From contig OX638340.1 in the NCBI GenBank assembly GCA_951812955.1, forward strand, positions 1,280,001 to 1,344,000: DNA of 64,000 bases, written 5' to 3'. This document shows positions 11,684 to 29,448 of the stretch, in pieces. The translations under genes were made by a program, and so were the position numbers. The notes under the pieces are model-generated. The model saw only the letters and a list, made by a program, of their open reading frames with translations, ran no database searches and was not told the origin of the DNA. This stretch comes from an uncultured Gemmatimonadota bacterium. GTDB lineage: Bacteria; JAAXHH01. How positions within the stretch are numbered: the first letter of the stretch is position 1; each line of letters starts with the position of its first letter.

Positions 11684-11944
11684 GGAGGTTTTCTCTGCGG
11701 GATAAATGCGTCGTTTTAAGTGACTGAAATCAACACGCAATACGGTAGACTGTCAACTTAAAGAAGCGGTGTTCGCCGGGGATGCCGGAGTCAAAGGGGT
11801 TGACTGTTCGCCGTGCCGACAACTACATTCCTGCCGGCGTCCGGCCGGGGCGATCCGCCGCCGAAAGGGCCATGCCAATCCGTCCGGCGGCACGCACCGG
11901 ATCGTCGGGACTACAGCAGGCAGGATGGCACGGAGTATCTGCAC

Positions 11945-12931
11945 TTGGACCCCTTGCGAATAGCCGTAATCGGTGTCGGACGGCTCGGTGAAGCCCATGC
12001 CCGGGTGCTGGCGGGAATGCCCGGCGTGAAGCTTTCCGGCGTGTACGACATACGGGAAGATCGCGCGGAGGAGGTCGCGCGTCGCTACGGCACGAATGCG
12101 CTCGACAGCCTGTCGCGTGCCACGGAGGAATCGGACGCTGTCACCGTGGTCGTACCCACCACCGCGCACTACGAGGTGGCGTCATTCGTCCTGTCCCGGG
12201 GCATGCATACCTTCGTAGAGAAGCCGATCACCGCCACCGTGGAGGAAGCCGACCGGCTGATCGAACTGGCGGACACCGGGGACCTGGTGCTTCAGGTCGG
12301 ACACATCGAACGGTTCAACGGCGCCTTCCTCGCCCTCGAGGGCATGGACATATCGCCAGGTTTCATCGAAGCGCACCGGCTGGCCTCCTTCGACCCCAGG
12401 GGAACGGACGTGTCCGTCGTCCACGACCTGATGATCCACGATATCGATCTCATCCTGCGTCTCGTCAAATCGGACCTGGAGTCGGTGGACGCCACGGGTG
12501 TCGCCGTGATTTCCAACCAGGTAGACATCGCCAACGCCCGCATGCGGTTCGCCGACGGATGCGTGGCCAACGTCACGGCCAGCCGCATCTCGCTGAAAAA
12601 GATGCGCAAAATGCGTATCTTCCTGCGCGATCATTATGTTTCGATGGACTTTCTGGCGGGCGAAAGTGAGATATACCGATTGTTAGACGATCCCGGTCAG
12701 GCCGGGAAGCGGGGTTTGAAAATACCCGTCCAGACCGGTGATGGACGAACACGGCATATCACGCGGCAGAAGACTTCGAAGAAGCGGAACGAGCCGTTGA
12801 AATCGGAACTCGCCTCCTTCGTCGCGGCGGTGCGTGGCGAGGCGCCGCCTCCGGTGACCGGCTTCGACGGCCGGGAAGCCCTGCGCGTTTCGCTGGCGGT
12901 AGTCGATCAGATCGACATCAGCAGCCGGTAA
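11945..12931 (+). CDS. Gfo/Idh/MocA family NAD(P)-dependent oxidoreductase.
   Basis: Rossmann motif RIAVIGVGRLGEAHARV right after a TTG start, and a C-terminal GFO_IDH_MocA_C-like domain. The long upstream ORF extension is low-complexity and judged non-coding. Confidence 0.65.
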   Translation: MDPLRIAVIGVGRLGEAHARVLAGMPGVKLSGVYDIREDRAEEVARRYGTNALDSLSRATEESDAVTVVVPTTAHYEVASFVLSRGMHTFVEKPITATVEEADRLIELADTGDLVLQVGHIERFNGAFLALEGMDISPGFIEAHRLASFDPRGTDVSVVHDLMIHDIDLILRLVKSDLESVDATGVAVISNQVDIANARMRFADGCVANVTASRISLKKMRKMRIFLRDHYVSMDFLAGESEIYRLLDDPGQAGKRGLKIPVQTGDGRTRHITRQKTSKKRNEPLKSELASFVAAVRGEAPPPVTGFDGREALRVSLAVVDQIDISSR

Positions 12932-13030
12932 GGCAGGCATCCTCGTACGTTGCGGCGACGAGGTCAGGACTGGCCGGCAGGCATCCTCGTTCATCTCTGC
13001 AACGAGATCCGGTCCCGCCGGCAGACCGGA
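12926..13030. repeat. Two-plus tandem ~45-bp units (ccggYaggcatcctcgt...), each with an internal hairpin, overlapping the stop of the upstream gene.
   Basis: Read directly: ggcaggcatcctcgtacgttgcggcgacgagg / ggcaggcatcctcgttcatctctgcaacgag, then partial ccggcagaccgg. Confidence 0.6.
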
Positions 13031-13061
13031 CGAATTAGCAGAAGGAGGACAGACCTTCAGC

Positions 13062-13631
13062 ATGAATATACGCGCCTTCGTCTTCGCTGCACGAAGCTAT
13101 ACGCCCATCCCGCTCGTCGCCGCCGTGCTGGTCATGGCCGAGCCCGGACCGATGACCTTCGTAGGAGGCGGCCTGCTGGTCCTACTCGGGGAATCCATAC
13201 GCCTGTGGGCGGTCGGCTATGCCGGCTCAGCCACCCGTACCCGACACGTTGGCGCGCCTTCGCTCATCACCAACGGTCCTTATGGACGGGTACGCAATCC
13301 GCTATACGTCGGCAACTTCGTGCTGAGTCTCGGCCTATGCATCATGGCTTGGGCCTGGATGCCCTACATGCTCGGAGTTTTCCTTGCCGCCTTCGGTGTG
13401 CAATACGGTCTCATCGTATCGCTGGAGGAAGAAAGCCTGCGAAAAACCTTCGGCGCGCAATACGAAGCGTACCTGACCGAGGTTCCCCGCTTCCTGCCTC
13501 GAATCTCCGAGTACGCCGCGGGCGAACCTGCGACTTACGATTTCGCAGCCGCCCTGCGCAGCGAGAGACGGACTTTCCAGTCCACGGCCGTGGTCATGGC
13601 TGCCATCGCCGCGCGCTGGTATTGGGGTTAG
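13062..13631 (+). CDS. Isoprenylcysteine carboxyl methyltransferase (ICMT)/phospholipid methyltransferase family membrane protein.
   Basis: Multi-TM protein with RNPLY motif (GPYGRVRNPLYVGNF) characteristic of ICMT/PEMT-family methyltransferases. Strong SD (aggagga) upstream. Confidence 0.65.
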   Translation: MNIRAFVFAARSYTPIPLVAAVLVMAEPGPMTFVGGGLLVLLGESIRLWAVGYAGSATRTRHVGAPSLITNGPYGRVRNPLYVGNFVLSLGLCIMAWAWMPYMLGVFLAAFGVQYGLIVSLEEESLRKTFGAQYEAYLTEVPRFLPRISEYAAGEPATYDFAAALRSERRTFQSTAVVMAAIAARWYWG

Positions 13632-13653
13632 TCCGAGCTAGAGGTTGGCGGCG

Positions 13654-14079
13654 CTACGGATTCTTATCCACGCCGCTCAGGCTGTTCAGGGTCCGTTCAT
13701 GCATCGTGCAACGGATGGTATCGGAGTCCTGGCCGGGCGGGCCGGGCAGTCGGGACGACGCCGATCCGGGTGGATCCTCCGAACCGTCGGTGGCCCCGGC
13801 GTCCTGCTGCTTGACGGATCGCCTTTGTACCGTGACACCCGCGTTCCCGTGTAGGAGGCTGAGCAGAGCGATGAGCGCTACGAGGAGGACGACGGGCCAC
13901 CAGGGTACGCTGAACAGCATGCGGACCGAATCCGATCCGGCGTGGAACAGCAGTCCGTACATGAAGATGGGACCGAGGATAATCAACAAGGCAACCCCCA
14001 CGACGCATATCACTTGCGACCAGGCCGGGTTGCGCTGAAGAAACCTCGATAGTTGCGATATGTCGTGCTTTCTCTTCAT
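13654..14079 (-). CDS. Hypothetical small membrane protein (two predicted TM helices).
   Basis: ORF with hydrophobic segments (VICVVGVALLIILGPIFMYGLLF, WWPVVLLVALIALLSLL). No recognisable family. Confidence 0.3.
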   Translation of the reverse strand: MKRKHDISQLSRFLQRNPAWSQVICVVGVALLIILGPIFMYGLLFHAGSDSVRMLFSVPWWPVVLLVALIALLSLLHGNAGVTVQRRSVKQQDAGATDGSEDPPGSASSRLPGPPGQDSDTIRCTMHERTLNSLSGVDKNP

Positions 14080-14324
14080 GAGTCGTTCCGTTCGGCGAAT
14101 GGGTTCATTGTCATCGGTTACCCACCTCCCACCAGGGTGGATGCAGGTTAGTTTACGAAGAAAACAATCGGAATCGGCGAAGGTCCGCAGGGGGCCGGTA
14201 CGCACGCCGGTACGTGCGCCGGAACCTCTTGACAATCCCGATCCTCGGACCTACTGTTACAGGTCAAAACTGACACGAACCGCATGAGCAGAGTCGGCCA
14301 ACACGCCAACGTAATGAGGTATCC

Positions 14325-14912
14325 GTGCCTCGCACCGCCACGAAAACGCGCGAAACCCTGGAAACCCGTATCGAGCTGACCCTCAACCTCGAGGGCGAAG
14401 GCAAGCTTTCCGGAGAAACCGGCATCGGTTTCTTCGACCACATGCTGGGGAGTTTCGTGAAGCACGCGGGGTTCGACCTCGATCTTGCCTGTACCGGCGA
14501 TTTGCATATCGACGATCATCACACGGTGGAAGACGTGGGGATCTGCCTCGGTCAGGCCCTTGCCAGGGCGATCGGCGACGGATCCGGCATTGCGCGATTC
14601 GGCCATGCCTACGCACCACTGGACGAGGCACTGGCCCGGGCCGTCTTCGACGTAAGCGGCAGGGCGCACCTGGAATTCGACGCCGATTTCACCCGGTCTT
14701 CGGTCGGCGATTTCAGCACGGAAATGGTGCGGGAGTTCTTCGGGGCCCTCGTCCACCACGGACGGGTCACCCTGCACATTGCCCTGCTCTCCGGCGTAAA
14801 CGCGCACCACCAGGTCGAAGCGGTCTTCAAGGCGTCGGCCAGGGCCCTGCGCCAGGCCGTGGCCATGGATGACCGGGTATCGGGCGTGCCGTCCACCAAG
14901 GGCAGTCTCTAG
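14325..14912 (+). CDS. hisB: Imidazoleglycerol-phosphate dehydratase HisB.
   Basis: Conserved IGPD motifs (TRETLETRIELTLNLEG, GFFDHML, DDHHTVEDVG, HHQVEAVFKA). GTG start with GAGG 8 nt upstream. Confidence 0.85.
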   Translation: MPRTATKTRETLETRIELTLNLEGEGKLSGETGIGFFDHMLGSFVKHAGFDLDLACTGDLHIDDHHTVEDVGICLGQALARAIGDGSGIARFGHAYAPLDEALARAVFDVSGRAHLEFDADFTRSSVGDFSTEMVREFFGALVHHGRVTLHIALLSGVNAHHQVEAVFKASARALRQAVAMDDRVSGVPSTKGSL

Positions 14913-15041
14913 CCCGCGGACGGTTAATCTGTCTTGCCGGCAGAAGACGTGAATTAAATCATGGCGTTATTGACGACGTGTATACCGCATATACATAAAT
15001 GACGTGCGCCTGATACAGCTGCACAATAGACTCGGGACACC

Positions 15042-16085
15042 ATGCACATCGACGAACTGGACACCCCGGCCTACGTGGCCGACCTGGACGTGATGGAGCG
15101 GAATATCGCGTCCATGGCGCAGCACTGCCGCAATCTCGGTATCGCCCTTCGATGCCATACCAAAAGTCACAAGATCCCTGAAATCGCCCACCGCCAGGTC
15201 CGGGCCGGAGCGATCGGCATCTGCTGCCAGAAACTAGGCGAGGCGGAAGTCATGGCCGCGGCGGGCATCGAGAACATCCTGGTCCCTTACAACATCGTGG
15301 GACCCCGGAAGGTGGAACGCCTTACCCGTGTAGCCAGACGTACCGAGATCACCGTGGCCGTCGACGACGTCATCACGGCACAGGGCATTTCGGACCGGGC
15401 GCTACAGGACGGATGCCGGGTCAACGTAATCATCGAGCTGGATACGGGTACGAAGCGTTGTGGCGTCCAGTCGCCCGAAGCGGCGGCGGACCTGGCCGAA
15501 CGCATCATGGACCTGCGCGGTCTCGCATTCAAGGGCGTCATGATCTTTCCCAGTCCTATTGAAGCAAAAGGGTTCTTGCGTGAGACCGTCGAGCGGATCA
15601 CGGAGAAGGGCATCCCCATCGAGATCATCAGCGGGGGCGGCACGGGTGGCGAGGAGAATTCGAAGGCTATGGGCTGCACCGAAACCCGCAGCGGTTCCTA
15701 CATCTGGGAGGGCATGAGCCGCATCGGGAACTCCGGCATGCTCAACGCCGAGCGCTGCGCCTGCCGCATGATCGTCACCGTGGTGAGCGCTCCTACGCCG
15801 GACCGAATCATCATCGACGGCGGGATGAAGACCTTCGCCAGCTACCCGCCCACACCGTACGGCCATATCATCGAGCATCCCGAAGCGGAGATTTACGGCA
15901 TGTCCGTGGAACACGGCCACGTGGACGTATCCCGGTGCGCGCATCGCTTCAAGGTCGGAGAGCGCCTGTCGGTCATTCCCCTGCACCAGGAAATGGCGCT
16001 GAACCTGCACGACGAACTCAACGGCGTACGGGGCGAGCAGGTGGAAGTCGTCTGGCCCGTCGCCGGCCGGGGCAAAGTGAAATAG
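15042..16085 (+). CDS. D-TA family PLP-dependent enzyme (alanine-racemase-like N-terminal domain; D-serine dehydratase DSD1/D-threonine aldolase-like).
   Basis: CHTKSHK PLP-lysine motif near the N-terminus and a C-terminal D-serine-dehydratase-like domain. Confidence 0.7.
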   Translation: MHIDELDTPAYVADLDVMERNIASMAQHCRNLGIALRCHTKSHKIPEIAHRQVRAGAIGICCQKLGEAEVMAAAGIENILVPYNIVGPRKVERLTRVARRTEITVAVDDVITAQGISDRALQDGCRVNVIIELDTGTKRCGVQSPEAAADLAERIMDLRGLAFKGVMIFPSPIEAKGFLRETVERITEKGIPIEIISGGGTGGEENSKAMGCTETRSGSYIWEGMSRIGNSGMLNAERCACRMIVTVVSAPTPDRIIIDGGMKTFASYPPTPYGHIIEHPEAEIYGMSVEHGHVDVSRCAHRFKVGERLSVIPLHQEMALNLHDELNGVRGEQVEVVWPVAGRGKVK

Positions 16086-16112
16086 CCACTGACAGTCTGG
16101 AAGGAGAAAACG

Positions 16113-17657
16113 ATGTCGGAACACCACGGAAGGGAAGTCTGGCAAAGCCGCCTGGGCCTGATCATGGCCATGGCGGGCAACGCCATCGGCCTGGGGAATT
16201 TCCTGCGGTTCCCTGTCCAGGCGGCCGCAAATGGCGGCGGGGCCTTCATGATTCCCTATTTCGTCGCGTTCCTGGTCGTGGGCATCCCCATGATGTGGGT
16301 GGAATGGAGCGTGGGCCGGTTCGGAGGCAAGCATGGCCACGGCACCACGCCGGGTATCCTGTACCGCCTGTGGAAACACCCGGCGGCAAAGTACATAGGC
16401 GTCCTCGGCATCGCTGCGCCGGTGGCCTTCGCGCTCTACTATTCCTACGTACAGTCGTGGACCCTGGCCTACAGCTTCTTCTCGCTGACCGGCGAGTACT
16501 TCGGCATCAGCACCCAGGCGGAGATGGGCGCATTCCTGAGCAGCTTCCAGGGCGTCTCCGAAAGTGCCTACTTCAGCAGCGTCGCCACCGCCTACGTCTT
16601 CTTCCTTATCAATCTCGGTATCGTATTCTGGGTGCTGACCCGTGGCGTGGTTCGGGGCATCGAAACCCTGGCCAAGTTTGCCATGCCCATGCTGCTGATC
16701 TTCGCGATCGTGCTGGTGGCGCGGGTGCTTACCCTGGGCACGCCCGATCCGTCCATGCCGGACCAAAGCGTCATGGCCGGTTTCGCCTGGATCTGGAATC
16801 CGGATCTCAGCCGACTTTCGGAAGGCAGCGTATGGCTCGCGGCAGCGGGTCAGATATTCTTCTCCCTGGGCATCGGCATCGGCAGCATGCAGTGCTACGC
16901 GAGTTATGTCCGCGCCCGGCAGGACGTCGCCCTGACCGGATTGACCACCTCCATGAGCAACGGCTTCGCCGAGGTGGTACTGGGCAGTTCCATCGCCATT
17001 CCCGTAGCCGTGGCCTTCTTCGGCGTCACCGCCACCGAGGCCATCGCGACCGGCGGATCCTTCGACCTGGGCTTTCAGTCCATGCCCCTGATCTTCCAGC
17101 AACTGCCCCTGGGCCAGTTCATCGGGACGCTGTGGTTCGGTCTGCTCTTTTTCGCCGGCATCACATCGACGGTAGCGCTGACGCAACCGCCCATGGCCTT
17201 CCTCCAGGACGAAATGGGCTGGCCGCGTAAGAAGGCGGCCATGGTCGTAGTCTCCTTCCTTTTCATCTTCGGAAACTTCATCGTCTTTAACATCGAGCAT
17301 GGCGTCATCGACGAGCTTGATTTCTGGATTGGGACCGTGGGACTGGTCGTATTTTCCTTCCTCGAGATCATTATATTCGCCTGGATTTTCGGCATGGACA
17401 AGGCATGGGAGGAGATCAACGAAGGTTCGGCAATCAAGATTCCACGGATATTCTACTACATGATCAAGTACGTCACGCCCGTTTCGCTTGCGATCCTGCT
17501 CGTCGTTTGGACCTACCAGGCGGGATTCGATTTGCTCCTGCTGCGCAACGCCAACCCGGAGGACATGCCCTTCCTGCTGATGACGCGCGGCATCATCGTG
17601 GGATTGATCCTGGTCGGCGTATTGCTGGTCAGACGGGTCTCTAAAAACTGGGGCTGA
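16113..17657 (+). CDS. Sodium-dependent transporter, neurotransmitter:sodium symporter (NSS/SNF) family.
   Basis: Hallmark N-terminal GLGNFLRFP motif and 11-12 TM helices. Confidence 0.85.
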   Translation: MSEHHGREVWQSRLGLIMAMAGNAIGLGNFLRFPVQAAANGGGAFMIPYFVAFLVVGIPMMWVEWSVGRFGGKHGHGTTPGILYRLWKHPAAKYIGVLGIAAPVAFALYYSYVQSWTLAYSFFSLTGEYFGISTQAEMGAFLSSFQGVSESAYFSSVATAYVFFLINLGIVFWVLTRGVVRGIETLAKFAMPMLLIFAIVLVARVLTLGTPDPSMPDQSVMAGFAWIWNPDLSRLSEGSVWLAAAGQIFFSLGIGIGSMQCYASYVRARQDVALTGLTTSMSNGFAEVVLGSSIAIPVAVAFFGVTATEAIATGGSFDLGFQSMPLIFQQLPLGQFIGTLWFGLLFFAGITSTVALTQPPMAFLQDEMGWPRKKAAMVVVSFLFIFGNFIVFNIEHGVIDELDFWIGTVGLVVFSFLEIIIFAWIFGMDKAWEEINEGSAIKIPRIFYYMIKYVTPVSLAILLVVWTYQAGFDLLLLRNANPEDMPFLLMTRGIIVGLILVGVLLVRRVSKNWG

Positions 17658-17692
17658 TCCCTTAATTCGCGGGATTGAATGTGTAGACCGCC

Positions 17693-18772
17693 ATGAGCAG
17701 GCATAACGAAGAATACCAGAGCATCGGCTTGCCTCCCGGCATCATCCGCCTGAGTCGTAACGAGAATCCTATCGGGCCCTCGCCCGGCGTCATCGAAGCG
17801 GTGAAGGCAAGGTGCGCCCGGATCAATCGCTACGAAGACGCTGACCAGATCGCACTCTTCCGCAAACTGGCGGAACTGCACGGCGTGCCCCACGATGAGC
17901 ATCTCGCCCTTCCCGGGGTGGATTCGGACGGTGCGTGGATCCGCGTAGGCGACGGCTCCGAACACCTGATGCACGCCATCGCCCGCGCCTTCCTGTCCGC
18001 GGGAGACGAAGTGATCGAGCCCGACCCCTCCTTTGGACTCATGTCCCGGTACGCGGAGCAGTGTGGCGGCCGCGCCGTGCGCACGCCTTTGACTGCGGAT
18101 TACGTTTATGACCTGGATGCCATGGAAGGTGCCGTCAACGAACGGACCCGCATGGCCGTCATCACCAACCCGAACAATCCCACGGGGACGATCCTCACCC
18201 ACGACGAGCTGTCACGCTTTGTCGCCGGCCTGCCGGAACGGGTGATCGTCCTGGTGGACGAAGCCTACGCGGATCTGGTGGAGGATTGCGCATGCGCCGA
18301 TGGCGCCGCCCTGGTCCGGGAGTTCGAGAACGTCTTCGTGGTACGCACCTTCTCTAAAGGGTACGGCCTGGCGGGATTCCGTTTGGGTTACGGCCTGGCG
18401 CAACCTCATATGATGAAGCGCGTCCGCGCGTTCCATGGCGGAACACCCAGCGCCATGGTCATGACCGCGGGCATTGCCGCCCTCGACGATCCGGATCATG
18501 TATCACGGACCCGTGCCGCGGCGAGTGCCTCCAAGGCACTGTACTACGCGGCGTGCGCTGAACTCGGACTCGAGTATGTCCGCAGCGAGGCGGCCTTCGT
18601 CCTCATCAGGGTGGGAGACGCCGCGGCCGTTGTCGACGCCCTGGCGAAGCGCGGCATACTCGTCATCGACGCCGAATCCTCATGGAAGCTGAAGGGCATG
18701 ATCAGGGTTTCGTACGGCAACGAACGGGAAAGCCGGATATTCGCCGAGGCGCTGCGGCAGATTTTGTGCTGA
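17693..18772 (+). CDS. Class II (HisC-like) PLP aminotransferase.
   Basis: Histidinol-phosphate aminotransferase family signatures (LSRNENPIGPSP, NPNNPTG, RTFSKGYGLAGFRLGY). Not in a his operon, so substrate is uncertain. Confidence 0.75.
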   Translation: MSRHNEEYQSIGLPPGIIRLSRNENPIGPSPGVIEAVKARCARINRYEDADQIALFRKLAELHGVPHDEHLALPGVDSDGAWIRVGDGSEHLMHAIARAFLSAGDEVIEPDPSFGLMSRYAEQCGGRAVRTPLTADYVYDLDAMEGAVNERTRMAVITNPNNPTGTILTHDELSRFVAGLPERVIVLVDEAYADLVEDCACADGAALVREFENVFVVRTFSKGYGLAGFRLGYGLAQPHMMKRVRAFHGGTPSAMVMTAGIAALDDPDHVSRTRAAASASKALYYAACAELGLEYVRSEAAFVLIRVGDAAAVVDALAKRGILVIDAESSWKLKGMIRVSYGNERESRIFAEALRQILC

Positions 18773-18846
18773 CGCGCCGGCGAAGACGTGCTCCACCCCC
18801 TCCGTAGCGTTATAAACAAACCGCAATCCAAATCGAAAGGCACACG

Positions 18847-20268
18847 ATGCCCGTATCCGAACTGTGTTTCACCCCGGCGACCGATCTCGTACGAATGATA
18901 CGTAAGAAGGACGTATCGGTAACCGAAGTCATGGAAGCCCATCTCGCGCAGGTCGACCGGGTGAACCCCGTCGTGAACGCCATCGTCACCTATCATCCGG
19001 AACAGGCGCTGGATGGCGCTCGGAAAGCCGACCAGGCCATTGCGCGCAACGAAGCTCAGGGCCCGCTATTCGGCCTGCCCATCGCCCACAAGGACCTGGT
19101 ATCAACCAAGGGAGTCCGGACGACTTTCGGTTCACCAATCTTCCAGGATTTCATTCCGGGACAAGACGAACTGATCGTGGAGCGTTTGAAAAAGGCCGGA
19201 GCGATTTCCTTCGGCAAGACCAACGTGCCGGAATTCGGCGCCGGTTCGCAGACTTTCAATCCAGTTTTCGGGGCGACCCTCAATCCATACGACACGTCCC
19301 GGACCTGCGGCGGAAGCAGCGGGGGCGCCGCGGTGGCGCTCGCCTGCGGCATGCTGCCCATTGCTGACGGGAGCGACATGGGCGGCTCGCTGCGCAACCC
19401 GGCCAGCTTCTGCAACGTGGTGGGGCTGCGGTCCGCGCCGGGCCGCGTGCCGCGGTGGCCGGCGATCAATGCCTGGGGTAAGCTCAGTGTCCAGGGACCT
19501 ATGGCTCGAACGGTCGAGGACGCCGCCCTCATGCTCAGCGCCATAGCGGGTCCCGATCCTCGCGCACCGCTTGCCATCCGCGAACCGGGCCGTGCATTCG
19601 CCCTGCCCCTGGAACGCGATTTCAAGGGGGCGACCGTCGCCTGGAGCATGGACTTCGGCGGGCTGCCCGTGGATCCCGAGGTCACCTCGGCCATCGAAGC
19701 GAAGCGCCAGATATTCGACGATCTCGGGATGACCGTCGAGCCTGGTCAGCCCGATTTCACCGAAGCCGACGAGGTATTCAAGACGCTGCGGGCGTGGAGC
19801 TTCATCCAGGGTTACGGCGATCTCCTCGAGACGCACCGCGACCAGATCAAGGACACCGTCATCTGGAATCTCGAGGCCGGCTTCGCCCTTTCAGGTCCGC
19901 AGATCGCCCGCGCGGAAGTGGACAGGACCACCCTGTACCACCGGGTCCGCAGGTTCATGGAGCGCCACGATTTCATGGTCTTCCCCGTCAGTCAGGTTCC
20001 TCCTTTCGACGTGAATACGCCCTATCCCACGGAAATAGACGGCGTGCGGATGGAAACCTACATTGACTGGATGAAGTCGTGCTACTACGTCACCGTCACG
20101 GGACTGCCCGCCATTTCCGTTCCCTGCGGATTCACTTCGTCGGGGCTCCCCGTGGGACTGCAGATCGTCGGCCGGCACGAGGACGAGTTCGGCGTCCTGC
20201 AACTCGCCCACGCCTTCGAACAGGCAACACAGACGTATAGAAAGCGCCCGTCGGTGGCCGAGGCATGA
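18847..20268 (+). CDS. Amidase (amidase-signature family).
   Basis: AS motif GGSSGGAAVALACGMLPIADGSDMGGSLRNPASFCNVVGLR, with Ser-cisSer-Lys context. Confidence 0.85.
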   Translation: MPVSELCFTPATDLVRMIRKKDVSVTEVMEAHLAQVDRVNPVVNAIVTYHPEQALDGARKADQAIARNEAQGPLFGLPIAHKDLVSTKGVRTTFGSPIFQDFIPGQDELIVERLKKAGAISFGKTNVPEFGAGSQTFNPVFGATLNPYDTSRTCGGSSGGAAVALACGMLPIADGSDMGGSLRNPASFCNVVGLRSAPGRVPRWPAINAWGKLSVQGPMARTVEDAALMLSAIAGPDPRAPLAIREPGRAFALPLERDFKGATVAWSMDFGGLPVDPEVTSAIEAKRQIFDDLGMTVEPGQPDFTEADEVFKTLRAWSFIQGYGDLLETHRDQIKDTVIWNLEAGFALSGPQIARAEVDRTTLYHRVRRFMERHDFMVFPVSQVPPFDVNTPYPTEIDGVRMETYIDWMKSCYYVTVTGLPAISVPCGFTSSGLPVGLQIVGRHEDEFGVLQLAHAFEQATQTYRKRPSVAEA

Positions 20269-20352
20269 GCGGGCTCGGCGCATTGCCCATACCGAACTGC
20301 AATGCCACGGACGGACCGATCTGAATCACCGCGTTCGGCCATCTCACGCTTT

Positions 20353-20397
20353 GCCATCATTCGTTCTGCCATTATTCATTCTGCCATTACTCGTCTT
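20353..20397. repeat. Three tandem 15-bp units (tgccatYaYtcRttc) in the intergenic region.
   Basis: Read directly. Confidence 0.5.
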
Positions 20398-20420
20398 GTC
20401 CCGTTCAGTCGGTTATCACC

Positions 20421-21779
20421 ATGTCCAATAAGGCGGAAGTCGTCATCTGCGGGGCGGGCATTGCAGGCGTGTCCGCTGCGTACCATCTCTCCCTGCGCCA
20501 TGGCGTGCGGGACATCGTACTCGTCGATGAAAGACCGCCTCTCTCCCTGACCAGCGCCTACGGGACCGAGGCCTACCGAAACTGGTGGCCCGATCTCCCC
20601 ATGTTCCGGTTTATGGACCGGAGCATCGGCCTGATGGAGGAGCTCGCCCGGGAGAGCAATAATGCGATCCGAATGAACCGTAGGGGATACGTTTTCCTCA
20701 CAGGTGACGAGAACCGCGTTCAGGAACTGACAGAAGAAGCGGACGCTGTGTCCAGCCTGGATGGAGGCGCCTTGCGTGTACACCGCGACGCCGGATCGTA
20801 TGTTCCGTCACGGCCGGAAGGCCTGGAACCGGATCTGACGGGCGCCGATCTGCTGCTGGATGAGGATGCGGTGAATACCCTGTTTCCATTTATCACGGAC
20901 GATGCAGTCGCCATGCTGCACGTTCGCCGCTGCGGATGGCTGGATGTACCGTCCCTCGGCCGGTGGATGCTGGACCGCATCGCATCCCGGGGCGGCAGGC
21001 TCGTTCAGGACAGGATTTCGCGGGTCGTGACAGTAAACAACCGGGTCAGGGGCGTGACGCTGGAATCAGGATCGGTCCTCGAAACAGGTAAATTCGTCCT
21101 CGCGGCCGGTCCACTGGTACCTGAAGCCGGCCGGATGCTGGGACTGGATATCCCGGTCTTCATGGAACTGCACGGCAAGGTCGTCGTGGAAGACCGGGCC
21201 GGCGTACTTCCGCCCGAGGCGCCCATGTTGATCTGGACGGACCCCATCGAGCTGGTCTGGGACAATGATGAGCGTGAGACACGCTCTGCGGATCCTGCCA
21301 CGCGCTACCTCACCGAACCCTTCCCCGGGGGGCTCCACATCCGTCCCCGGTTCAGGGACGGTAAACAGACCTTTCTGGGCATCTGGACTTACGATATCAA
21401 GCCGAGGAAGGCTGAATTCCCGCTCGAGTTCGACCCGGCCTACCCGGTGATCATCCTGCGCGGACTCGCCCGGATGATCCCGGGGATGCGCGCGTATTTC
21501 GAAACGGCCGACGCTATGCAGGTCGACGGCGGGTACTACTGCAAGACGGTGGACAACCGGCCGCTGATCGGACCACTGCCCGTCGAAGGCGCATATATCG
21601 CAGGCGCGCTTTCCGGCTACGGTGTGATGGGTTCCCAGGCCGCGGGAGAACTGATCGCCGCCCAGGTCACCGGCGCGGCACTGCCTGATTATGCGGAGGA
21701 CTTCTCCTTCGGTCGTTTTGACGGCCTGTCGTCCGACGACATGTTGAAAATGCGCGACGCGACCAGGGGGCAGCTGTAG
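20421..21779 (+). CDS. FAD-dependent oxidoreductase (DAO family).
   Basis: N-terminal dinucleotide-binding motif VVICGAGIAGVSAAYHL; 452 aa. Confidence 0.8.
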   Translation: MSNKAEVVICGAGIAGVSAAYHLSLRHGVRDIVLVDERPPLSLTSAYGTEAYRNWWPDLPMFRFMDRSIGLMEELARESNNAIRMNRRGYVFLTGDENRVQELTEEADAVSSLDGGALRVHRDAGSYVPSRPEGLEPDLTGADLLLDEDAVNTLFPFITDDAVAMLHVRRCGWLDVPSLGRWMLDRIASRGGRLVQDRISRVVTVNNRVRGVTLESGSVLETGKFVLAAGPLVPEAGRMLGLDIPVFMELHGKVVVEDRAGVLPPEAPMLIWTDPIELVWDNDERETRSADPATRYLTEPFPGGLHIRPRFRDGKQTFLGIWTYDIKPRKAEFPLEFDPAYPVIILRGLARMIPGMRAYFETADAMQVDGGYYCKTVDNRPLIGPLPVEGAYIAGALSGYGVMGSQAAGELIAAQVTGAALPDYAEDFSFGRFDGLSSDDMLKMRDATRGQL

Positions 21780-21985
21780 GTATGGATGTATGGATGTGTG
21801 CTGTCCCATGGCGGACCCGGCCGGACTGCCTGTGGTGTTAAATCACCAGAGAACATGTTGTGCGGCGCTCAAACGACATTTTGTATTGGTCCCCCGTCCC
21901 GCTCATGGTATAATCAGTCAGCACTTTCCCCAGGCAAAACCCGATACCTCGACAATCGGAAATACCAGTCTGAACCGGAGCTTAC

Positions 21986-23104
21986 ATGCCTGCACCTGAC
22001 TACGACCTGCTCATACGCGCCGGCCGCGTGTTCTGCGCGGAAACCGGTCTCGACGGACCGGGCGCCGTGGCTGTGAAAGACGGGCGCATAGCGGCATCCG
22101 GCCCCGGGGTCGAGGGTACCGCCGCCATGGTTTACGACTTCCCCGACGCCCTGGCGTTGCCCGGACTCGTGGACCTGCACGCCCATCCCGCGCGGGGCGG
22201 TTCGCGTTACGGCGTGGATCCCGATGTCCATTTTCTTTCCCGGGGTGTTACGACCGTCATGTCCCAGGGGGACGCGGGCGCCGGAAACTGGCCGGCGTAC
22301 CGGGAACGTGTGATCCGGGCCTGCAGGACGCGGGTACTGCTCGCCATCAATTTATCGATTCATGGTGAATCCCATCCGGACGGCTGCTTTCCCGACCTGG
22401 ACGCCGCGGACATGGACGCCTGCGTTTCCGCCATCGAATCGGGGGGCGGGGATATATGGGGTATCGCGGCGAACACGGGACCCAGCAATCCCACGCCGCC
22501 CAGGGAGATCATGAATCGGGCATTGGAAGCCTCCGAACGATCGGGTAAGCCCCTACTGGTCGGTACGCGCCTTTCCAGCGACTGGTCTCTCGACGACCAA
22601 TTGCCCCTGCTGCGCGCCGGGGACGTGGTGACTTACTGCTTCAACGATTTTCCGGAGAGCGTCGTTAAGGACGGCAGGATCCGGGCCAGCGTGCGCGACG
22701 CCCGCGAACGGGGCGTAATCTTCGATATCGGCCACGGCATGCGGTCATTCAGCTTCGCGGTCGCCGAGGCGGCCATCGCGGACGGATTCCTGCCGGATAC
22801 GATATCCACCGACCAGTACAGCCGTCACGTGGGGAGCAGCCCGCAGCACGACCTGCCCAGAACAATGTCCAAGCTGATCGCCGCGGGGATGTCGGAACGC
22901 GACGCGCTCCCACGTATGACGAGCCGTCCCGCGGAAGTGCTGGGATTGAAGGGCGAGGTCGGCACCCTGCGCGCCGGCGCCTGCGGCGACGTGGCGTTGC
23001 TGCGTTGGAACGAACATGCTCCTCCGCTGCGCGACGTGGACGGCCTAGAGCGGCCCGGCGGATGCTGGGAACCCGTGCTCGCCGCCCGGGCGGGCGTAGT
23101 CTGA
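21986..23104 (+). CDS. Amidohydrolase-family metallohydrolase.
   Basis: DLHAHP metal-binding motif near the N-terminus, later HG.. and D.. motifs. 372 aa TIM-barrel hydrolase fold. Confidence 0.7.
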   Translation: MPAPDYDLLIRAGRVFCAETGLDGPGAVAVKDGRIAASGPGVEGTAAMVYDFPDALALPGLVDLHAHPARGGSRYGVDPDVHFLSRGVTTVMSQGDAGAGNWPAYRERVIRACRTRVLLAINLSIHGESHPDGCFPDLDAADMDACVSAIESGGGDIWGIAANTGPSNPTPPREIMNRALEASERSGKPLLVGTRLSSDWSLDDQLPLLRAGDVVTYCFNDFPESVVKDGRIRASVRDARERGVIFDIGHGMRSFSFAVAEAAIADGFLPDTISTDQYSRHVGSSPQHDLPRTMSKLIAAGMSERDALPRMTSRPAEVLGLKGEVGTLRAGACGDVALLRWNEHAPPLRDVDGLERPGGCWEPVLAARAGVV

Positions 23105-23273
23105 CATTACGCACGCAATGTGCGACTGCGGCGCGAGCGGGTTTACCAACCACGCCGCCCGGGCGGGTATCATGTAGGCGGATCGGCCGGCTACCGGAAA
23201 GCAGATCACGCAGTTCAGATCCATGCTCAACCCAGGCTAATCCAACCGGCCACACCGATGAGGAGATTTCAAC

Positions 23274-24131
23274 ATGGTATATGGATCGGGAGACTTTACC
23301 TACGAGCTCGTCGAAGGCTGGGGAGGCGGAGCCGCAGGCCGGGACCTCGGGGTGGTATCCTCCATGGCCGTGGATTCGCAGGACCGCGTCCACGTCATCG
23401 ACCGGGAACCGGATCCGGCCGTCGTCGTTTACGACCGCGACGGGCGATTCCTGTACGACTGGGGGCAGGATATCTTCAAGGTGCCCCATTCCATCTGGAT
23501 CAGCGAGGACGACATCATCTACATGACTGACGTCGAGCTGCATACCGTCATGGCCTTCACCCTCGATGGGAAGATGCTCTCCATGCTCGGAACGCCTGAC
23601 AGGCCGGGTGAACTCGGCCAGCCGTTCAATGCGCCAACCTGGGCGGTGCTCGGTCTGGATGACGACCTTTACGTGACCGACGGCTACGGCCAGAGTTACG
23701 CGCACCGTTTTACGACGGCGGGAGAGCGGCTCTGTACATGGGGCGGCCACGGCAACGAGGCGGGACAGTTCGACACGCCCCACTGCGTCCGCGTCGACAA
23801 GGATGGCCGCGTCCTGATCGTGGACCGCGGCAACTCCCGGGTACAGGTATTCGACGCCAACGGCGGCTTCCTCGAATCGTGGGACCATTTGCTGGCCGCC
23901 AACGACCTGTATATCGACCCAGACAACGTGGTGTACCTTGCCGAGGCGCCCGGCAGGGTCAGCATACTCAACCTGGATGGCGAGGTACTGTCGCAGTGGG
24001 GCAACCGGGACGGGAAGTCCGGGCTGTTCGTGGACGCGCCCCACGGGATCTGGGTGGACTCCCATGGTGATATCTACGTGTGCGAAGTACCCTTCGCGCA
24101 TAACCGCATTCAGAAATTCCGGCGGGTGTAG
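23274..24131 (+). CDS. NHL-repeat beta-propeller protein (peptidylglycine alpha-amidating lyase-like).
   Basis: Repeated ..LY(V/M)TD.. and ..V.D..G.. blades (DIIYMTD, DLYVTDGYG, RVLIVDRGNSRVQVFD, DIYVCEV). Confidence 0.65.
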   Translation: MVYGSGDFTYELVEGWGGGAAGRDLGVVSSMAVDSQDRVHVIDREPDPAVVVYDRDGRFLYDWGQDIFKVPHSIWISEDDIIYMTDVELHTVMAFTLDGKMLSMLGTPDRPGELGQPFNAPTWAVLGLDDDLYVTDGYGQSYAHRFTTAGERLCTWGGHGNEAGQFDTPHCVRVDKDGRVLIVDRGNSRVQVFDANGGFLESWDHLLAANDLYIDPDNVVYLAEAPGRVSILNLDGEVLSQWGNRDGKSGLFVDAPHGIWVDSHGDIYVCEVPFAHNRIQKFRRV

Positions 24132-24248
24132 GATTCCACAGGCACCGACCTATGAATCTGCAGGCCGCCGACCCTTGATTCTGCAGGCCGCCGTCAGCGG
24201 GCGGGTCCACATGCGTCGCGGAGTGGCACAAGGAAAGGCTCATAGCAT

Positions 24249-24749
24249 TTGAACTGGCTCGTTCCACTTCTGTTGGGTCTCGTCGTCACCTGGGCGGCGG
24301 CCTGTGGGAACGGCGATGACAATCCCATCTCAAAAACACCTGCACCGGATCCTCCCGCCGACGTCAATAAGGCGGGAAACGTCGTCTTCAGTCCGGGTGG
24401 GGTCGAATCCGCCGCGCAGTGGGGTTCGGATGACTTTGAACTGGGGGCCGTTGCCGTTGCCGGCGATACGCTTACAGTTACCGTATCGTATAGCGGCGGA
24501 TGCAGAACGCACCGGTTCACGCTCGTTGCCGCCGACGGCTTCCTGGAATCGGATCCCGTACAGCTCGAAGTCGCCATTGCCCACGACGCCGACGGCGACC
24601 CGTGCGAGGCATACCCCACGGAAGACTGCCATTTCATCCTCGATCCGATCAAGGCGCGGTACAAGGCGTCCTACGGACCCGGGCCGGGCGCCGTCGTCCT
24701 CAGGCTCGATCGCGCCACGGGCGCACCGCTCATCTATGAGTTCGATTAA
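24249..24749 (+). CDS. Hypothetical secreted protein/lipoprotein.
   Basis: Signal peptide with a Cys-containing lipobox-like AAAC. No known domain. Confidence 0.45.
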   Translation: MNWLVPLLLGLVVTWAAACGNGDDNPISKTPAPDPPADVNKAGNVVFSPGGVESAAQWGSDDFELGAVAVAGDTLTVTVSYSGGCRTHRFTLVAADGFLESDPVQLEVAIAHDADGDPCEAYPTEDCHFILDPIKARYKASYGPGPGAVVLRLDRATGAPLIYEFD

Positions 24750-24756
24750 CCGAGCC

Positions 24757-24871
24757 CGGGTAGCGCGTTGCGGCGAGGCGTCGACAAACTCAGTCCGGGG
24801 TGGCGCGTTGCGATGAGGCGTCGAAAAACTCAGTACGGGGTGGCGCGGTGCGATGAGGCGTCGATTTCCGG
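24757..24871. repeat. ~3 tandem copies of a 40-bp unit (cggggtggcgcgttgcgatgaggcgtcgaaaaactcagt).
   Basis: Read directly in the intergenic region; units start near 24757, 24796 and 24836. Confidence 0.7.
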
Positions 24872-24892
24872 TAACCTGATGAGGAGCGTACG

Positions 24893-25990
24893 ATGGCATT
24901 CGAAATCCTGGAACAAGGCATGATCGCCCGGCAGCCGACCACCGGGCCGGACGCAGTCGCGGCATGCTCCCGCTGCGTGGTCACCGCGGAAAGCAACCTG
25001 GTCTGTTCTTTCGCCGTACAGGAAGCGCTCGGTCAGAATGACTTCAAGCAGGTCATCGTCCATTCAGACGACGGCGGCCGAACGTGGACTAAGCCCGCCT
25101 ATATGTGGCCCCATCTGCACGACGATTTCGCGCACATCGGTTCTATAAGCAAGGCGCCGGACGGAACCTGCTTCATCACGGGCATTCGCATCCCCATCGA
25201 CTCCCCCGGCGAATCGTTCTGGCTCGACGAAACCCAGGGCATCAAGCAGAACGCCATGTTCTGGGCGTCCTCGGCGGACCAGGGACTAACCTGGACCGAC
25301 CCGGTTCCCATCGACCTGCCCGCCGCCGGTTCGGCCGAAGCGCCCGGCGCGCTCACCGTGACCCGCGACGGATCGTGGATCTGCTGCTATTCGCCTTACA
25401 ACACCTTTGATCCCGACGTGGAAGTGGACCGTAACCGGGTGGTTTACCTGCGTAGCGAGGACCGGGGCGCTACCTGGCAACATGGATCGATGCTGCGTTT
25501 CGACGACGCCGGATCTACTGCCGCCGAGGCTTGGGTTGTGGAACTGGCCGATGGCCGGCTCCTCGGCGCGTGCTGGCAAATCGCGCCGCACGGCAAGCCG
25601 GACTATCCCAACGCGTACGCCCTGTCCCATAACGGCGGCCTGTCGTGGACGCCCACCCGCTCCACGGGCACAATGGGCCAGTCCATATCCCTGACCGCCC
25701 TGGCGGACGGAAGTGCGCTGATGGCATACAACCAGCGCCAGCACGGAGAACCGGGAATCCGCCTCGCCGTCGCCCGGCCCGCGGACGATGACTTCGGTAT
25801 CGAAGCGGATGAGCTCGTCTGGAAGGCTGAGGTGCGGACGCAAAGTGACTCCTCCGGCGAACATGACGAGTGGCAGGACTATTCCTTCGGCGAACCCGCG
25901 GTGACCGTCCTTCCGGACGGCGCGTTTCTGGTCGTCTTCTGGCTCATCCAACCCGATGTCCGGGGCATCGGCTACGTCAAGGTAAAGTAG
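24893..25990 (+). CDS. BNR/Asp-box repeat glycoside hydrolase, exo-alpha-sialidase-like.
   Basis: Four Asp-box repeats S-x-D-x-G-x-T-W (SDDGGRTW, SADQGLTW, SEDRGATW, SHNGGLSW). Confidence 0.75.
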   Translation: MAFEILEQGMIARQPTTGPDAVAACSRCVVTAESNLVCSFAVQEALGQNDFKQVIVHSDDGGRTWTKPAYMWPHLHDDFAHIGSISKAPDGTCFITGIRIPIDSPGESFWLDETQGIKQNAMFWASSADQGLTWTDPVPIDLPAAGSAEAPGALTVTRDGSWICCYSPYNTFDPDVEVDRNRVVYLRSEDRGATWQHGSMLRFDDAGSTAAEAWVVELADGRLLGACWQIAPHGKPDYPNAYALSHNGGLSWTPTRSTGTMGQSISLTALADGSALMAYNQRQHGEPGIRLAVARPADDDFGIEADELVWKAEVRTQSDSSGEHDEWQDYSFGEPAVTVLPDGAFLVVFWLIQPDVRGIGYVKVK

Positions 25991-25994
25991 CGCC

Positions 25995-26525
25995 GTGTCC
26001 AGCACCCGGATCATACTGGGCTCCCTGATCGCGGCGTCGGTACGCCACGGCATTTTCACGATCGCCTTGCCCTGGCTTATCCTGTACCAGGCCGCCGGCA
26101 TGGAGGAGATGGGATTCGATTCCGGTTATCCGGCTGCGGGATCGGTGTTCATCCTCCTGGGCGCGGCACTCTATATCCGCGCCTTCGCCGAACGTCTTCG
26201 CATGACCGCCATGGTGGCCGCGTCCAGCGAAACCTTCGAGGATAGTGGCGCGAAGGATCCTCGCCCGGTCTGGTCCGAAGGGATCCACGGATGGTCTCGC
26301 AATCCCCTGCAACTCGGCGTCGTCGTCATCCTGTTCGGAGAGTCCCTCGCCTTCGAATCGCTCTTGTTGCTAGTCTACGCGGCGCTGTATTGGACCTGGA
26401 CGACCCTGTACCTGATCATCGCCGAAGAGCCAGTCCTTAGACGCACACTGGGTGACGAATATACCGCATACTGCCGCCATGTCCCGCGCTGGTTTCTACC
26501 ATTTCGATTCCGCAAGCCGGCCTGA
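25995..26525 (+). CDS. Isoprenylcysteine carboxyl methyltransferase-like membrane methyltransferase.
   Basis: Multi-TM with RNPLQ motif and a C-terminal EEPVLRRTLGDEY region typical of ICMT/PEMT-like proteins. Confidence 0.55.
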   Translation: MSSTRIILGSLIAASVRHGIFTIALPWLILYQAAGMEEMGFDSGYPAAGSVFILLGAALYIRAFAERLRMTAMVAASSETFEDSGAKDPRPVWSEGIHGWSRNPLQLGVVVILFGESLAFESLLLLVYAALYWTWTTLYLIIAEEPVLRRTLGDEYTAYCRHVPRWFLPFRFRKPA

Positions 26526-26597
26526 TTCTCCACGCTGAGAGATTTCCTCCAATCGACACGATTCTCGTCGGCCTTCCATATTACACCATACAATTCA

Positions 26598-26627
26598 TGC
26601 CATTTTGGCAGTTCTGCCATTATGGCA
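26598..26627 (+). promoter_or_regulatory. Two direct copies of the palindrome TGCCA-N3-TGGCA, ~200 bp upstream of clpB; possible operator for a dimeric regulator.
   Basis: tgccattttggca (26598-26610) and tgccattatggca (26615-26627), read directly. Does not match CIRCE, HAIR or CtsR consensus. Confidence 0.25.
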
Positions 26628-26827
26628 TATCTGGTTATTTTCATTCCGGTCTAGCAAACGGAAACTGCCTTCCGGTTATGTCGAAACCCCCGGAAACGCG
26701 GGGATAACACTCCATGGCACACGTTTTGCAATCTATAGGGTGTGTAATGCGTGGGGATAGGGACTGGAGCTGGGACTGAGCGCATACACATACAGATAAA
26801 TTGAAAACGAGCGAGGAGGCAAAGGGC

Positions 26828-29425
26828 ATGAGAACAGACAAACTGACCCAGAGATCGATGGAAGCGCTTCAGATCTCCCAGGAGATCGCACGAGGTCGAA
26901 ACCACAACCGATTGGAGCCCGTCCACCTGGCGCTGGCACTGCTTGATCAAGACGAAAGCCTGGCGGCCACGTTGCTGAAGAAGTCGGGAACGGATCCGGC
27001 TCGAGTCCGGGAGGGACTGGAAGCCGTCCTGGCCAAACTTCCCCGGGTGACCGGGGACGGCGCGTCACTATACGCATCCGACGCTTTCCAGCGTGTACTG
27101 GACGAAGCGCTGAAGGAGGCGCAGGGACTGAAAGACGAATACATCAGCGTGGAGCACCTGCTCCTCGCGCTGTTGAAGGACGGCGGGGAGACCGGCCGCG
27201 CCATGAAGGATGCGGACGCTCACCGCGACGGCATATTGAAAGCCATGCAAGCGGTCCGTGGAAACCAGCGCGTCACCAGCCAGACGCCGGAATCCGGCTA
27301 CCAGGTCCTGGAAAAGTTCAGCATGGACCTGACCGAACAGGCCCGGGAAGGCCGGCTCGACCCGGTCATCGGACGCGACGAGGAGATCCGGAGGGTGATC
27401 AAGGTGCTGTCCCGGCGGACCAAGAACAATCCTGTGCTCATCGGCGAGCCCGGCGTGGGAAAGACGGCCATCGTGGAGGGACTGGCCCAGAAGGTCGTGG
27501 CCGAGGACGTGCCGGAATCCCTAAAGGGACGCAAGGTGATCAGTCTCGATATGGGCGCCATGCTGGCCGGGGCCAAGTTCCGCGGCGAATTCGAGGAACG
27601 ATTCAAGGCCGTGCTGAAGGAGGTGGAGGAGGCCGCGGGCGACATCGTCCTGTTTATCGATGAACTGCACACCATCGTCGGCGCGGGGGCCGCGGAAGGC
27701 GCCGTGGACGCCTCCAACATGCTCAAGCCGGCGCTGGCGCGGGGGACGCTGCGCTGCGTGGGCGCTACGACCCTGGACGAATACCGCAAACATATCGAGA
27801 AAGACGCCGCGCTCGAAAGGCGGTTCGCACCGGTATTCGTCGGTGAACCTTCCGTTGAAGACACCGTGTCCATACTGCGCGGACTCAAGGAGCGCTACGA
27901 GATCCATCACGGGGTGCGCATCCGGGACAGCGCGCTGGTCACGGCGGCGACCCTGGCGGAGCGTTACATCAGCGACAGGTTCATGCCCGACAAGGCCATC
28001 GACCTGATCGACGAGGCCGCGGCGAACCTGCGCATGGAAATCGACAGCATGCCGGCCGAACTGGACGACCTCGAGAAGCAGATCCGACAGCTTGAAATCG
28101 AGCGTGAAGCCGTAAAACACGAAAACGACGCGGAAGAGCGGCTCAAGCCATTGGTTAGCCGGCTGGCCGACCTGGAAGAACAGCGTAACGCCCTGCGGGC
28201 GCACTGGCTCGCCGAGAAAGAGATGGTAAAAACAATCCAGGAGATCAAGGAAAAGACCGAGCAGCTCAAAATCGAGGCCGACCGGGCCCAGCGAGCCGGA
28301 GACTACGAACGGGCGGCCCGTATACAGTACGGTGAGCAACGGGAGCTTGACAGCCGGCTCGAAGAGAAAAACCTGGCGCTTACCGAGTTACAGCAGGAAC
28401 GCCGGATGCTCAAGGAGGAAGTGGACGAGGAGGACATCGCCCAGGTCGTTTCCAAGTGGACCGGGATTCCGGTCAACCGCCTGGTCGAAGGCGAGGTCGA
28501 GAAGCTGGTCCGGATGGAGTCTCGGCTACACAGGCAGGTGGTAGGCCAGGATGAGGCCATCGCCGCCGTTTCCAACGCCGTCAGACGAAGCCGGGCCGGT
28601 CTGGGTGATGGCGACAGGCCCATCGGGTCCTTCCTGTTCCTCGGACCCACCGGCGTGGGCAAGACCGAACTGGCCCGGGCCCTGGGAGAGTTTCTATTCG
28701 ACGACAGGAACGCGATGGTGCGCGTCGACATGTCCGAGTACATGGAGCGCCATTCCGTCGCCCGGCTCGTCGGCGCCCCACCCGGTTACGTGGGTTACGA
28801 GGAAGGCGGCCAGCTGACCGAAGCGGTGCGTCGCAGGCCTTACCAGATCGTGCTGCTTGACGAGATCGAGAAGGCACATCCCGACGTGTTCAACATGCTG
28901 CTGCAGGTCCTCGACGACGGAAGGCTCACGGACGGCCAGGGACGCACGGTGGATTTCAGGAACACCGTGATCATCATGACTTCCAACATCGGGACGGAGT
29001 TCATCGGCGGTCACGATGCGTCCCGAGACCAACAGGTGCGGACGGACGTGATGAATGCGGTGCGTTCCCATTTCTGCCCCGAATTCATCAATCGACTGGA
29101 GGAGATCATCATCTTCCACCCCCTGGACCGGGATCACATCCGGGAGATTGTCCGCATTCAGATTCGCGAACTGCAGGAACGCCTGTCGAAACAGGCCGGA
29201 TTGACGCTGGAACTGGCGCCCGAGGCCGAATCGCTGCTAGCCGATGAGGGGTACGAGCCCCAGTACGGCGCGCGGCCCCTCAAGCGGGTTATACGCAAGT
29301 TCGTTGAGAACCCGCTGTCCATGGCACTGCTCGAAGGCAGGTTCCGTGAAGGGGATGCGATCCGGGCCATCCGCGAGGGCGACCGCCTGGACTTTGTCCG
29401 CCAGGATGCTTCGGCAGCCGCATAA
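26828..29425 (+). CDS. clpB: ATP-dependent chaperone ClpB.
   Basis: Clp N-domain, two AAA+ modules ([16 protein letters not shown]), a long middle coiled-coil, and a C-terminal ClpB_D2-small domain. GAGGAGG SD 10 nt upstream of the ATG at 26828. Confidence 0.9.
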
Positions 29426-29448
29426 ATCGGGCTCAGGGGTTCGTTGCC

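Follow-up and report, generated by a model that had tools for sequence, protein, structure and literature searches.

A lineage-specific, co-directional run of nitrogen-metabolism genes in an uncultured Gemmatimonadota bacterium, probably made up of several units

Gene content and spacing of the run

We analyzed a 64,000-nucleotide stretch of DNA from an uncultured Gemmatimonadota bacterium (contig OX638340.1, positions 1,280,001 to 1,344,000; hereafter the window), and in particular seven consecutive plus-strand genes at 15042-24131, here called g1 to g7. From the sequence alone these genes had been read as one cluster for the uptake and processing of an amino-acid or amide-like compound, with the logic of a D-amino-acid or amidated-compound catabolic pathway. 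Drawing on the gene identities, spacing, limits of synteny and insertions that were observed, we favor, with a probability of about 0.6, a reading in which they form a lineage-specific co-directional block of several independent units and not one dedicated pathway. The seven genes and the hisB gene that precedes them are as follows.

14325-14912, plus strand: hisB, imidazoleglycerol-phosphate dehydratase (PF00475, E 1e-62; NF002111, 264 bits against a cut-off of 231)
15042-16085, plus strand: g1, fold-type III pyridoxal phosphate (PLP) enzyme of the D-threonine aldolase/DSD1 superfamily (Ala_racemase_N and D-ser_dehydrat)
16113-17657, plus strand: g2, LeuT-type SNF/NSS symporter (PDB 2a65)
17693-18772, plus strand: g3, subfamily I-beta (HisC/ArAT-type) aminotransferase (Aminotran_1_2)
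18847-20268, plus strand: g4, amidase-signature (AS) amidase of the PRK07486 subfamily (NF005686)
20421-21779, plus strand: g5, DAO-family flavin adenine dinucleotide (FAD) oxidoreductase, about 455 residues (PF01266)
21986-23104, plus strand: g6, cog3964/PRK09237-type metallo-amidohydrolase (HxH motif and profile)
23274-24131, plus strand: g7, NHL-repeat beta-propeller (PF01436)

Calls of open reading frames (ORFs) and profile matches confirmed the seven plus-strand ORFs and the domain families first assigned to them, and all seven genes are intact. Two descriptions of their setting did not hold. The same-strand run is not a unit of seven genes: it comprises 14 genes (14325-32266), beginning with hisB, which lies 129 bp upstream of g1, and continuing beyond g7 with a lipoprotein ORF, genes for BNR, PEMT, ClpB and Peptidase_S58 proteins and finally an SSF symporter gene. 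Nor does the HisC-like gene g3 lie outside any his operon as described, since a genuine hisB stands two genes upstream of it.

Spacing is tight only along g1-g2-g3-g4, with gaps of 27, 35 and 74 bp, and the gaps before g5, g6 and g7 are wider, at 152, 206 and 169 bp, respectively. An extended -10-like sequence, TGGTATAAT, is present upstream of g6, and the spacer between g4 and g5 contains a short repeat:

20352-20389: 15-bp direct repeat TGCCATTATTCATTC, 2.5 copies

Judged by its position, this repeat is a candidate regulatory or binding site upstream of g5. A consensus promoter scan of 14000-25000 returned no sigma-70-like sites, with terminator-like sites at chance level, and an Rfam scan of 11000-27000 returned no riboswitch or leader. 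No regulator gene was found at the locus, the minus-strand ORF upstream of hisB encoding a small membrane protein. Base composition is even over the region, without any anomaly.

Gene order inside and outside the clade

A scan with g1, in which each species was represented by a single genome, turned up a set of relatives labelled Latescibacterota or Gemmatimonadota, many of which, to judge by their isolate names, come from sponge metagenomes. We place the window in a marine Latescibacterota lineage that is mostly sponge-associated. One of the relatives, L001 (OY762445.1, the 3.9-Mb chromosome of a metagenome-assembled genome), shares 99% protein identity in g1 and about 95% nucleotide identity over the region. 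The window also encodes an ankyrin-repeat protein (54006-55124, minus strand), which fits the inferred sponge-symbiont habitat; there are frequent reports of ankyrin-repeat proteins from sponge symbionts.

The clade loci (L001-L017, L026, L093-L095, L150 and L155) were compared by tblastn with 14 window proteins, and throughout them the order is lnt (minus strand), gfo, hisB, g1 to g7, bnr, pemt and clpB. Conserved synteny, which the original prediction had offered as its test, came out against a dedicated cluster: the full seven-gene order was found only within this close clade. The unrelated neighbors on either side (lnt, gfo, hisB, bnr, pemt and clpB) are as well conserved in it as g1-g7, so that clade conservation fails to set the seven apart. 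Genes of the relatives were called with a GC3-weighted caller. The gaps between consecutive genes, measured from tblastn coordinates in 22 clade loci, are as follows.

hisB to g1: 18-325 bp, and 18-49 bp in 13 of the 22 loci
g1 to g2: 21-84 bp
g2 to g3: -4 to 35 bp
g3 to g4: 10-151 bp
g4 to g5: -4 to 213 bp
g5 to g6: always at least 117 bp
g6 to g7: 23-169 bp

The g5-g6 junction is also the site of a recurrent insertion. Of 19 clade loci covering it, nine, L001 included, carry cobQ (cobyric acid synthase; cobalamin biosynthesis) between the two genes, and the other ten, the window among them, do not. The relatives' CobQ scores 536.7 bits with NF001989, for which the cut-off is 273. The difference is a clean indel between genomes about 95% identical at the nucleotide level, with 1514 bp in L001 (16740-18253) standing against a short segment in the window:

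21781-21877: 97-bp segment at the cobQ site of relatives, delimited by blastn break points

A second insertion, between g2 and g3, is confined to L005 and consists of a Schlafen/AlbA_2 and HATPase_c_4 gene (12750-14456).

Within the clade, L026 and L095 (79% identity in g4 and 56% in g5) keep all seven genes. The deep-sea Latescibacterota loci L081-83, at the same divergence (77% in g4 and 58% in g5), have g4 and g5 only, with a PhyH gene between them, in a setting of Amidohydro_2, Rieske and ADP-ribosylglycohydrolase genes and with a Clp_N fragment downstream; this arrangement resembles a remnant of ancestral synteny. Conservation reaches deepest for the link of hisB with g1 in L018 and of hisB, g1 and g2 in L019. 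In L018 the next gene is a cation-efflux gene, and in L019 it is a Zn-ADH-like gene, a HisC-like gene being absent at that place.

Orthologues of g1 that are 57-75% identical occur in 62 distant loci, 41 of which extend at least 3 kb to both sides, in Poribacteria, Caldilineaceae and other Chloroflexota, Bryobacterales, Bathyarchaeia, Nitrososphaerales and deeper Latescibacterota. With the exception of L019 and its hisB-g1-g2 arrangement, none of the 62 loci has g2-g5 or g7 near the g1 orthologue. In Poribacteria (26 loci), the g1 orthologue is followed by PhyH and Amidohydro_2 genes, whose window orthologues (64% and 60% identity) are located 35 kb from g1:

50100-50828, plus strand: PhyH dioxygenase
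50847-51746, plus strand: Amidohydro_2

This pair may represent the real functional partners of g1. The three genes are apparently common to sponge-symbiont phyla, but they are unlinked here. A network joining g1, PhyH, Amidohydro_2, g4 and g5 was considered and rejected, as the PhyH and Amidohydro_2 proteins of L081-83 are not orthologous to those of Poribacteria (24% identity or no match). In the Bathyarchaeia contig L072, an apparent amidase gene close to g1 was likewise discarded as a link to g4, the gene being GatA beside GatB.

The remaining genes are similarly dispersed outside the clade. No partner from the set adjoins the g4 orthologues in two other lineages, and the g5 orthologues of other lineages (52-59% identical) have unrelated neighbors in four of them, where identities are 53-57%. 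Orthologues of g6 that are 53-64% identical occur on 58 metagenome contigs in varied contexts, and none of these contigs, 15 of which extend 3 kb or more to either side, has g1-g5 nearby. An NHL gene (38% identity) adjoins a g6 orthologue in L096, the sole such case.

The seven proteins

The g1 protein matches PF01168 (Ala_racemase_N, E 3e-23) and PF14031 (D-ser_dehydrat, E 1e-13), and its closest solved structure is the D-threonine aldolase of Alcaligenes xylosoxidans (AxDTA; PDB 4v15, E 8e-51). It shares the two-domain fold-type III architecture of AxDTA, DSD1 and BhcC and keeps the PLP lysine, the equivalent of Arg157 and the metal-binding histidine of AxDTA: Lys41, which aligns with AxDTA Lys59, Arg139 and His315 are invariant among 59 orthologues. 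At 347 residues, however, it belongs to a short, non-canonical subfamily about 30 residues below AxDTA, and a 7-residue deletion throughout this subfamily removes the loop that carries His193. Tyr187 of AxDTA corresponds to Phe169 in the window clade and is Tyr in 81% of the g1 family. In the structure of AxDTA, His193 and Tyr187 are catalytic residues. The second metal ligand is altered as well; by the criterion used for the superfamily (HxD in aldolases, HxC in dehydratases), this position is Glu317 here and is Gly in 56% of orthologues. Assignment of g1 as BhcC was rejected (217.8 bits against a cut-off of 690), and g1 does not have BhcA, BhcB and BhcD as neighbors. On these residues, g1 is a member of the D-threonine aldolase superfamily that lacks the catalytic features of that aldolase, and its subfamily comprises short enzymes of this type, without the known catalytic loop, that have been kept across several phyla including archaea.

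The symporter g2 is much closer to a characterized protein, LeuT of Aquifex aeolicus (PDB 2A65; E 3e-145, 53% identity over 456 residues). It retains N21, A22, G24, L25, G26, N27, Y108, F253, T354 and S355, positions that in the LeuT structures form the Na1 and Na2 sites and bind the alpha-amino and carboxylate groups of the substrate, so that all Na+-site and backbone-binding residues are common to the two proteins. Because g2 is a LeuT orthologue in which these sites are intact, we take it to import an alpha-amino acid. The side-chain pocket, in contrast, differs from that of LeuT at five positions (V104F, T254S, S256G, F259I and I359L), so that g2 probably prefers another amino acid than LeuT does. 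g2 is, in short, a LeuT orthologue with a changed substrate pocket.

The best NCBIfam matches of g3 are all HisC models, with TIGR01141 matching at full length and 244.7 bits, below the hisC cut-off of 276.55, and its closest solved structure is an aromatic aminotransferase (ArAT) from M. tuberculosis (4r2n, E 2e-43). In HisC, a histidinol-phosphate aminotransferase (HspAT), the phosphate is bound by Arg337 and Arg346 and the lid is formed by Tyr25, in M. tuberculosis numbering (PMC4703992). Compared with HisC and ArAT (4R2N), g3 retains the Lys, Asn, Asp, Tyr and Arg that bind PLP as well as the distal Arg that anchors the substrate, but it lacks the N-terminal lid Tyr (the 'PY' segment is absent) and has Ile in place of the first C-terminal Arg, in a residue comparison that included an E. 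coli reference sequence. The g3 ORF cannot be extended upstream. Orthologues at least 67% identical to g3 were found only inside the clade, identities elsewhere being at most 42%. Over 17781-18940, L150 and L002 are 75-80% identical to the window in nucleotide sequence, against 94-98% in the flanking g1, g2 and g4, a pattern that would make g3 a putative hot spot of recombination or allelic replacement, with its allele exchanged between near-identical strains. A search for HisC paralogues, which covered part of one related chromosome of the same clade (OZ241838.1), found at least two more members of the family, at 205.6 and 256.7 bits, both below the TIGR01141 cut-off. The possibility that g3 is the CobD partner of the relatives' cobQ was rejected, its TIGR01140 score (155.9 bits against 290.55) being weaker than that for hisC.

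The amidase g4 scores 553.5 bits with NF005686, above the cut-off of 465, and has the GGSSGG signature at residue 155 together with the Lys and Ser positions of the Ser-cisSer-Lys triad. Its orthologues in Desulfobacterales and Chloroflexota are about 70% identical. The type as a whole (PRK07486), about 70% identical over Latescibacterota, Desulfobacterales and Chloroflexota, is unusually conserved for a substrate-orphan enzyme; elsewhere its recurrent neighbors are PhyH, MR_MLE, Amidohydro_2, MFS and Peptidase_S58 genes. g5 matches PF01266 (E 1e-37) and was rejected as DadA (27.9 bits against 383), as SoxB (33.3 bits against 529) and as ThiO, which is likewise far below its cut-off; it is a member of a widespread DAO subfamily without a characterized member.

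The presence of a DAO-family flavoenzyme and an alanine-racemase-fold PLP enzyme in one run invites comparison with a dadAX-type operon, but the likeness is superficial: g5 scores 28 bits against the 383 for DadA and g1 scores 23 bits against the 168 for Alr, other genes stand between the two, and elsewhere their orthologues are not found together.

The amidohydrolase g6 aligns at full length with the cog3964 proteins EF0837 (2ICS) and Atu3266 (2OGJ), at E 1e-34 to 1e-38, and shares their HxH metal motif, but it remains below the family cut-off of the PRK09237 model (254.7 bits against 371). We know of no physiological substrate for the cog3964 amidohydrolases. The last protein, g7, had been described as an NHL/PAL-like propeller. 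The NHL part of that description stands, and the likeness to PAL (peptidyl-alpha-hydroxyglycine alpha-amidating lyase, a six-blade NHL propeller with a Zn/Ca site and catalytic Tyr and Arg) is at most putative, as its match to PAL (E 2e-18) is weaker than that to TRIM-type NHL proteins (E 1e-35). A single-sequence AlphaFold model of g7 was poor (pLDDT 65; Foldseek TM-score about 0.32), and PAL and TRIM NHL proteins are not separable with it. No signal peptide was found in g7, which is accordingly best described as a putative cytoplasmic NHL propeller. Searches of the literature on cog3964, PDB 8JE0, sponge-symbiont NSS transporters, sponge D-threonine aldolase and PAL residues yielded nothing usable.

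Competing readings and neighboring features

In the reading that we favor, the transcription units, substrates and reaction directions that we infer are as follows. Unit A, hisB-g1-g2-g3, is the part of the run with the deepest conservation and the tightest spacing and plausibly serves amino-acid import and PLP-dependent conversion; it is probably one transcript, which may extend into g4 and g5. Within it, g2 would bring a neutral alpha-amino acid into the cell by Na+ symport, g3, an atypical I-beta aminotransferase, would convert that amino acid to its 2-oxo acid (a HisC role is less likely), and g1, probably metal-dependent, would have a D-amino acid or a beta-hydroxy amino acid as its substrate. 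Unit B would consist of g4 and g5 as widely conserved stand-alone enzymes, with an adjacency inherited within the phylum, and unit C of g6 and g7, with an upstream region of its own and with cobQ able to separate it from unit B. From the uptake and processing logic first proposed, this retains g1-g3 as a plausible amino-acid uptake and conversion unit and gives up the seven-gene D-amino-acid or amide pathway. Profile scores also place the region outside the characterized D-amino-acid, sarcosine, beta-hydroxyaspartate and hydantoin operons tested.

Several observations weigh against a division into independent units. The order and short spacing of the seven genes are stable clade-wide, even where protein identity falls to 56-79%; each of the seven products could plausibly be a catabolic enzyme for nitrogen compounds; and a single long transcript may reach from hisB to g7. 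In Bryobacterales (L068, L069 and L073) and in one Bathyarchaeia contig (L072), the gene immediately upstream of g1 encodes a cog3964 paralogue with 35% identity to g6, the only cross-phylum hint of a link within the set, here between g1 and g6. Furthermore, many of the metagenome contigs with g6 are short, only the 15 of 58 given above having 3 kb or more of flank on each side. A rival reading is a single dedicated seven-gene operon, in which g2 imports a D-amino acid, a beta-hydroxy amino acid or an amidated compound and the other six products degrade it, by deamidation or deacylation (g4 and g6), PLP chemistry (g1 and g3), FAD oxidation (g5) and the action of an NHL lyase (g7). Order, strand and mostly short gaps are the same in every clade member with enough sequence, the enzymes are all intact and of suitable classes, and the cog3964 paralogue beside g1 orthologues in two other phyla and the NHL gene beside the g6 orthologue of L096 also speak for it. 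We nevertheless regard it as quite improbable. Outside the lineage neither the set nor its pairs were found together, those weak cog3964-g1 and NHL-g6 links excepted; the housekeeping genes hisB and cobQ stand at the head of the run or within it; the equally diverged L081-83 retain g4 and g5 only; the steady Poribacteria partners of g1 are 35 kb off in this genome; and there is the lack of any regulator gene at the locus. No product, moreover, reaches the cut-off of a characterized D-amino-acid enzyme model (DadA, Alr or BhcC), a result that tells equally against the D-amino-acid pathway of the original prediction.

The position of hisB two genes upstream of g3, tightly spaced in many relatives, raises a different alternative, in which the locus is the remnant of a his operon running from hisB to hisC, with g3 as the histidinol-phosphate aminotransferase, g1-g2 as a lodged cassette and g4-g7 as unrelated downstream genes. 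The uniformly HisC character of the best g3 matches, at full length and 244.7 bits, agrees with this, as does the fact that no better HisC candidate was found in the part of one related chromosome that was inspected, the two same-clade paralogues (205.6 and 256.7 bits) also being sub-cut-off. On the other hand, g3 is missing both the lid Tyr and the first Arg of the pair that holds the phosphate (roles from PMC4703992), its closest solved relative is an aromatic aminotransferase, and its allele is swapped between strains in the manner of an accessory gene. In addition, hisB-g1-g2 in L019 and hisB-g1 in L018 run into non-HisC genes. We consider a his remnant unlikely. A more specific proposal is that hisB-g1-g2-g3, perhaps with g4 and g5, is an operon peculiar to this lineage of sponge-associated Latescibacterota that imports a host- or sponge-derived, non-proteinogenic D- or beta-hydroxy amino acid through the re-tuned LeuT and then degrades it via g1. 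We hold this to be rather doubtful; in it g1 would catalyze a new reaction, because the canonical catalytic His is absent, and, if it were true, the g1 subfamily (57-68% identical in Poribacteria, Chloroflexota, Acidobacteriota and Thermoproteota) would represent an unrecognized and widely used enzyme activity.

The locus has little significance as a system: it is an ordinary syntenic block of uncharacterized nitrogen-metabolism genes, the clustering of which reflects shared ancestry and not a demonstrated pathway. Same-strand adjacency in one window overstates operon logic unless relatives are consulted. The value lies in the individual proteins, namely the g1 subfamily, g4 (about 70% identical across phyla) and g2, as reasonable targets for enzyme discovery in the metabolism of sponge symbionts.

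Further features were noted in and beyond the region that follows g7.

24145-24193: 23-bp repeat, 2.1 copies, directly after g7
24249-24749: 166-residue ORF between g7 and BNR, its signal sequence resembling that of a lipoprotein (hydrophobic stretch, then Cys)
24758-24864: 40-bp unit in 2.7 tandem copies just upstream of BNR, unique within the window
29549-32266, plus strand: Peptidase_S58 (DmpA-type aminopeptidase/amidase) gene and then an SSF sodium:solute symporter gene, downstream of clpB

The 166-residue ORF has no Pfam or NCBIfam match, and an ORF of similar size (170 residues, no Pfam match) is called at a similar position in L155. The Peptidase_S58 and SSF genes, on the same strand as the run, may form another small uptake-plus-hydrolase pair.

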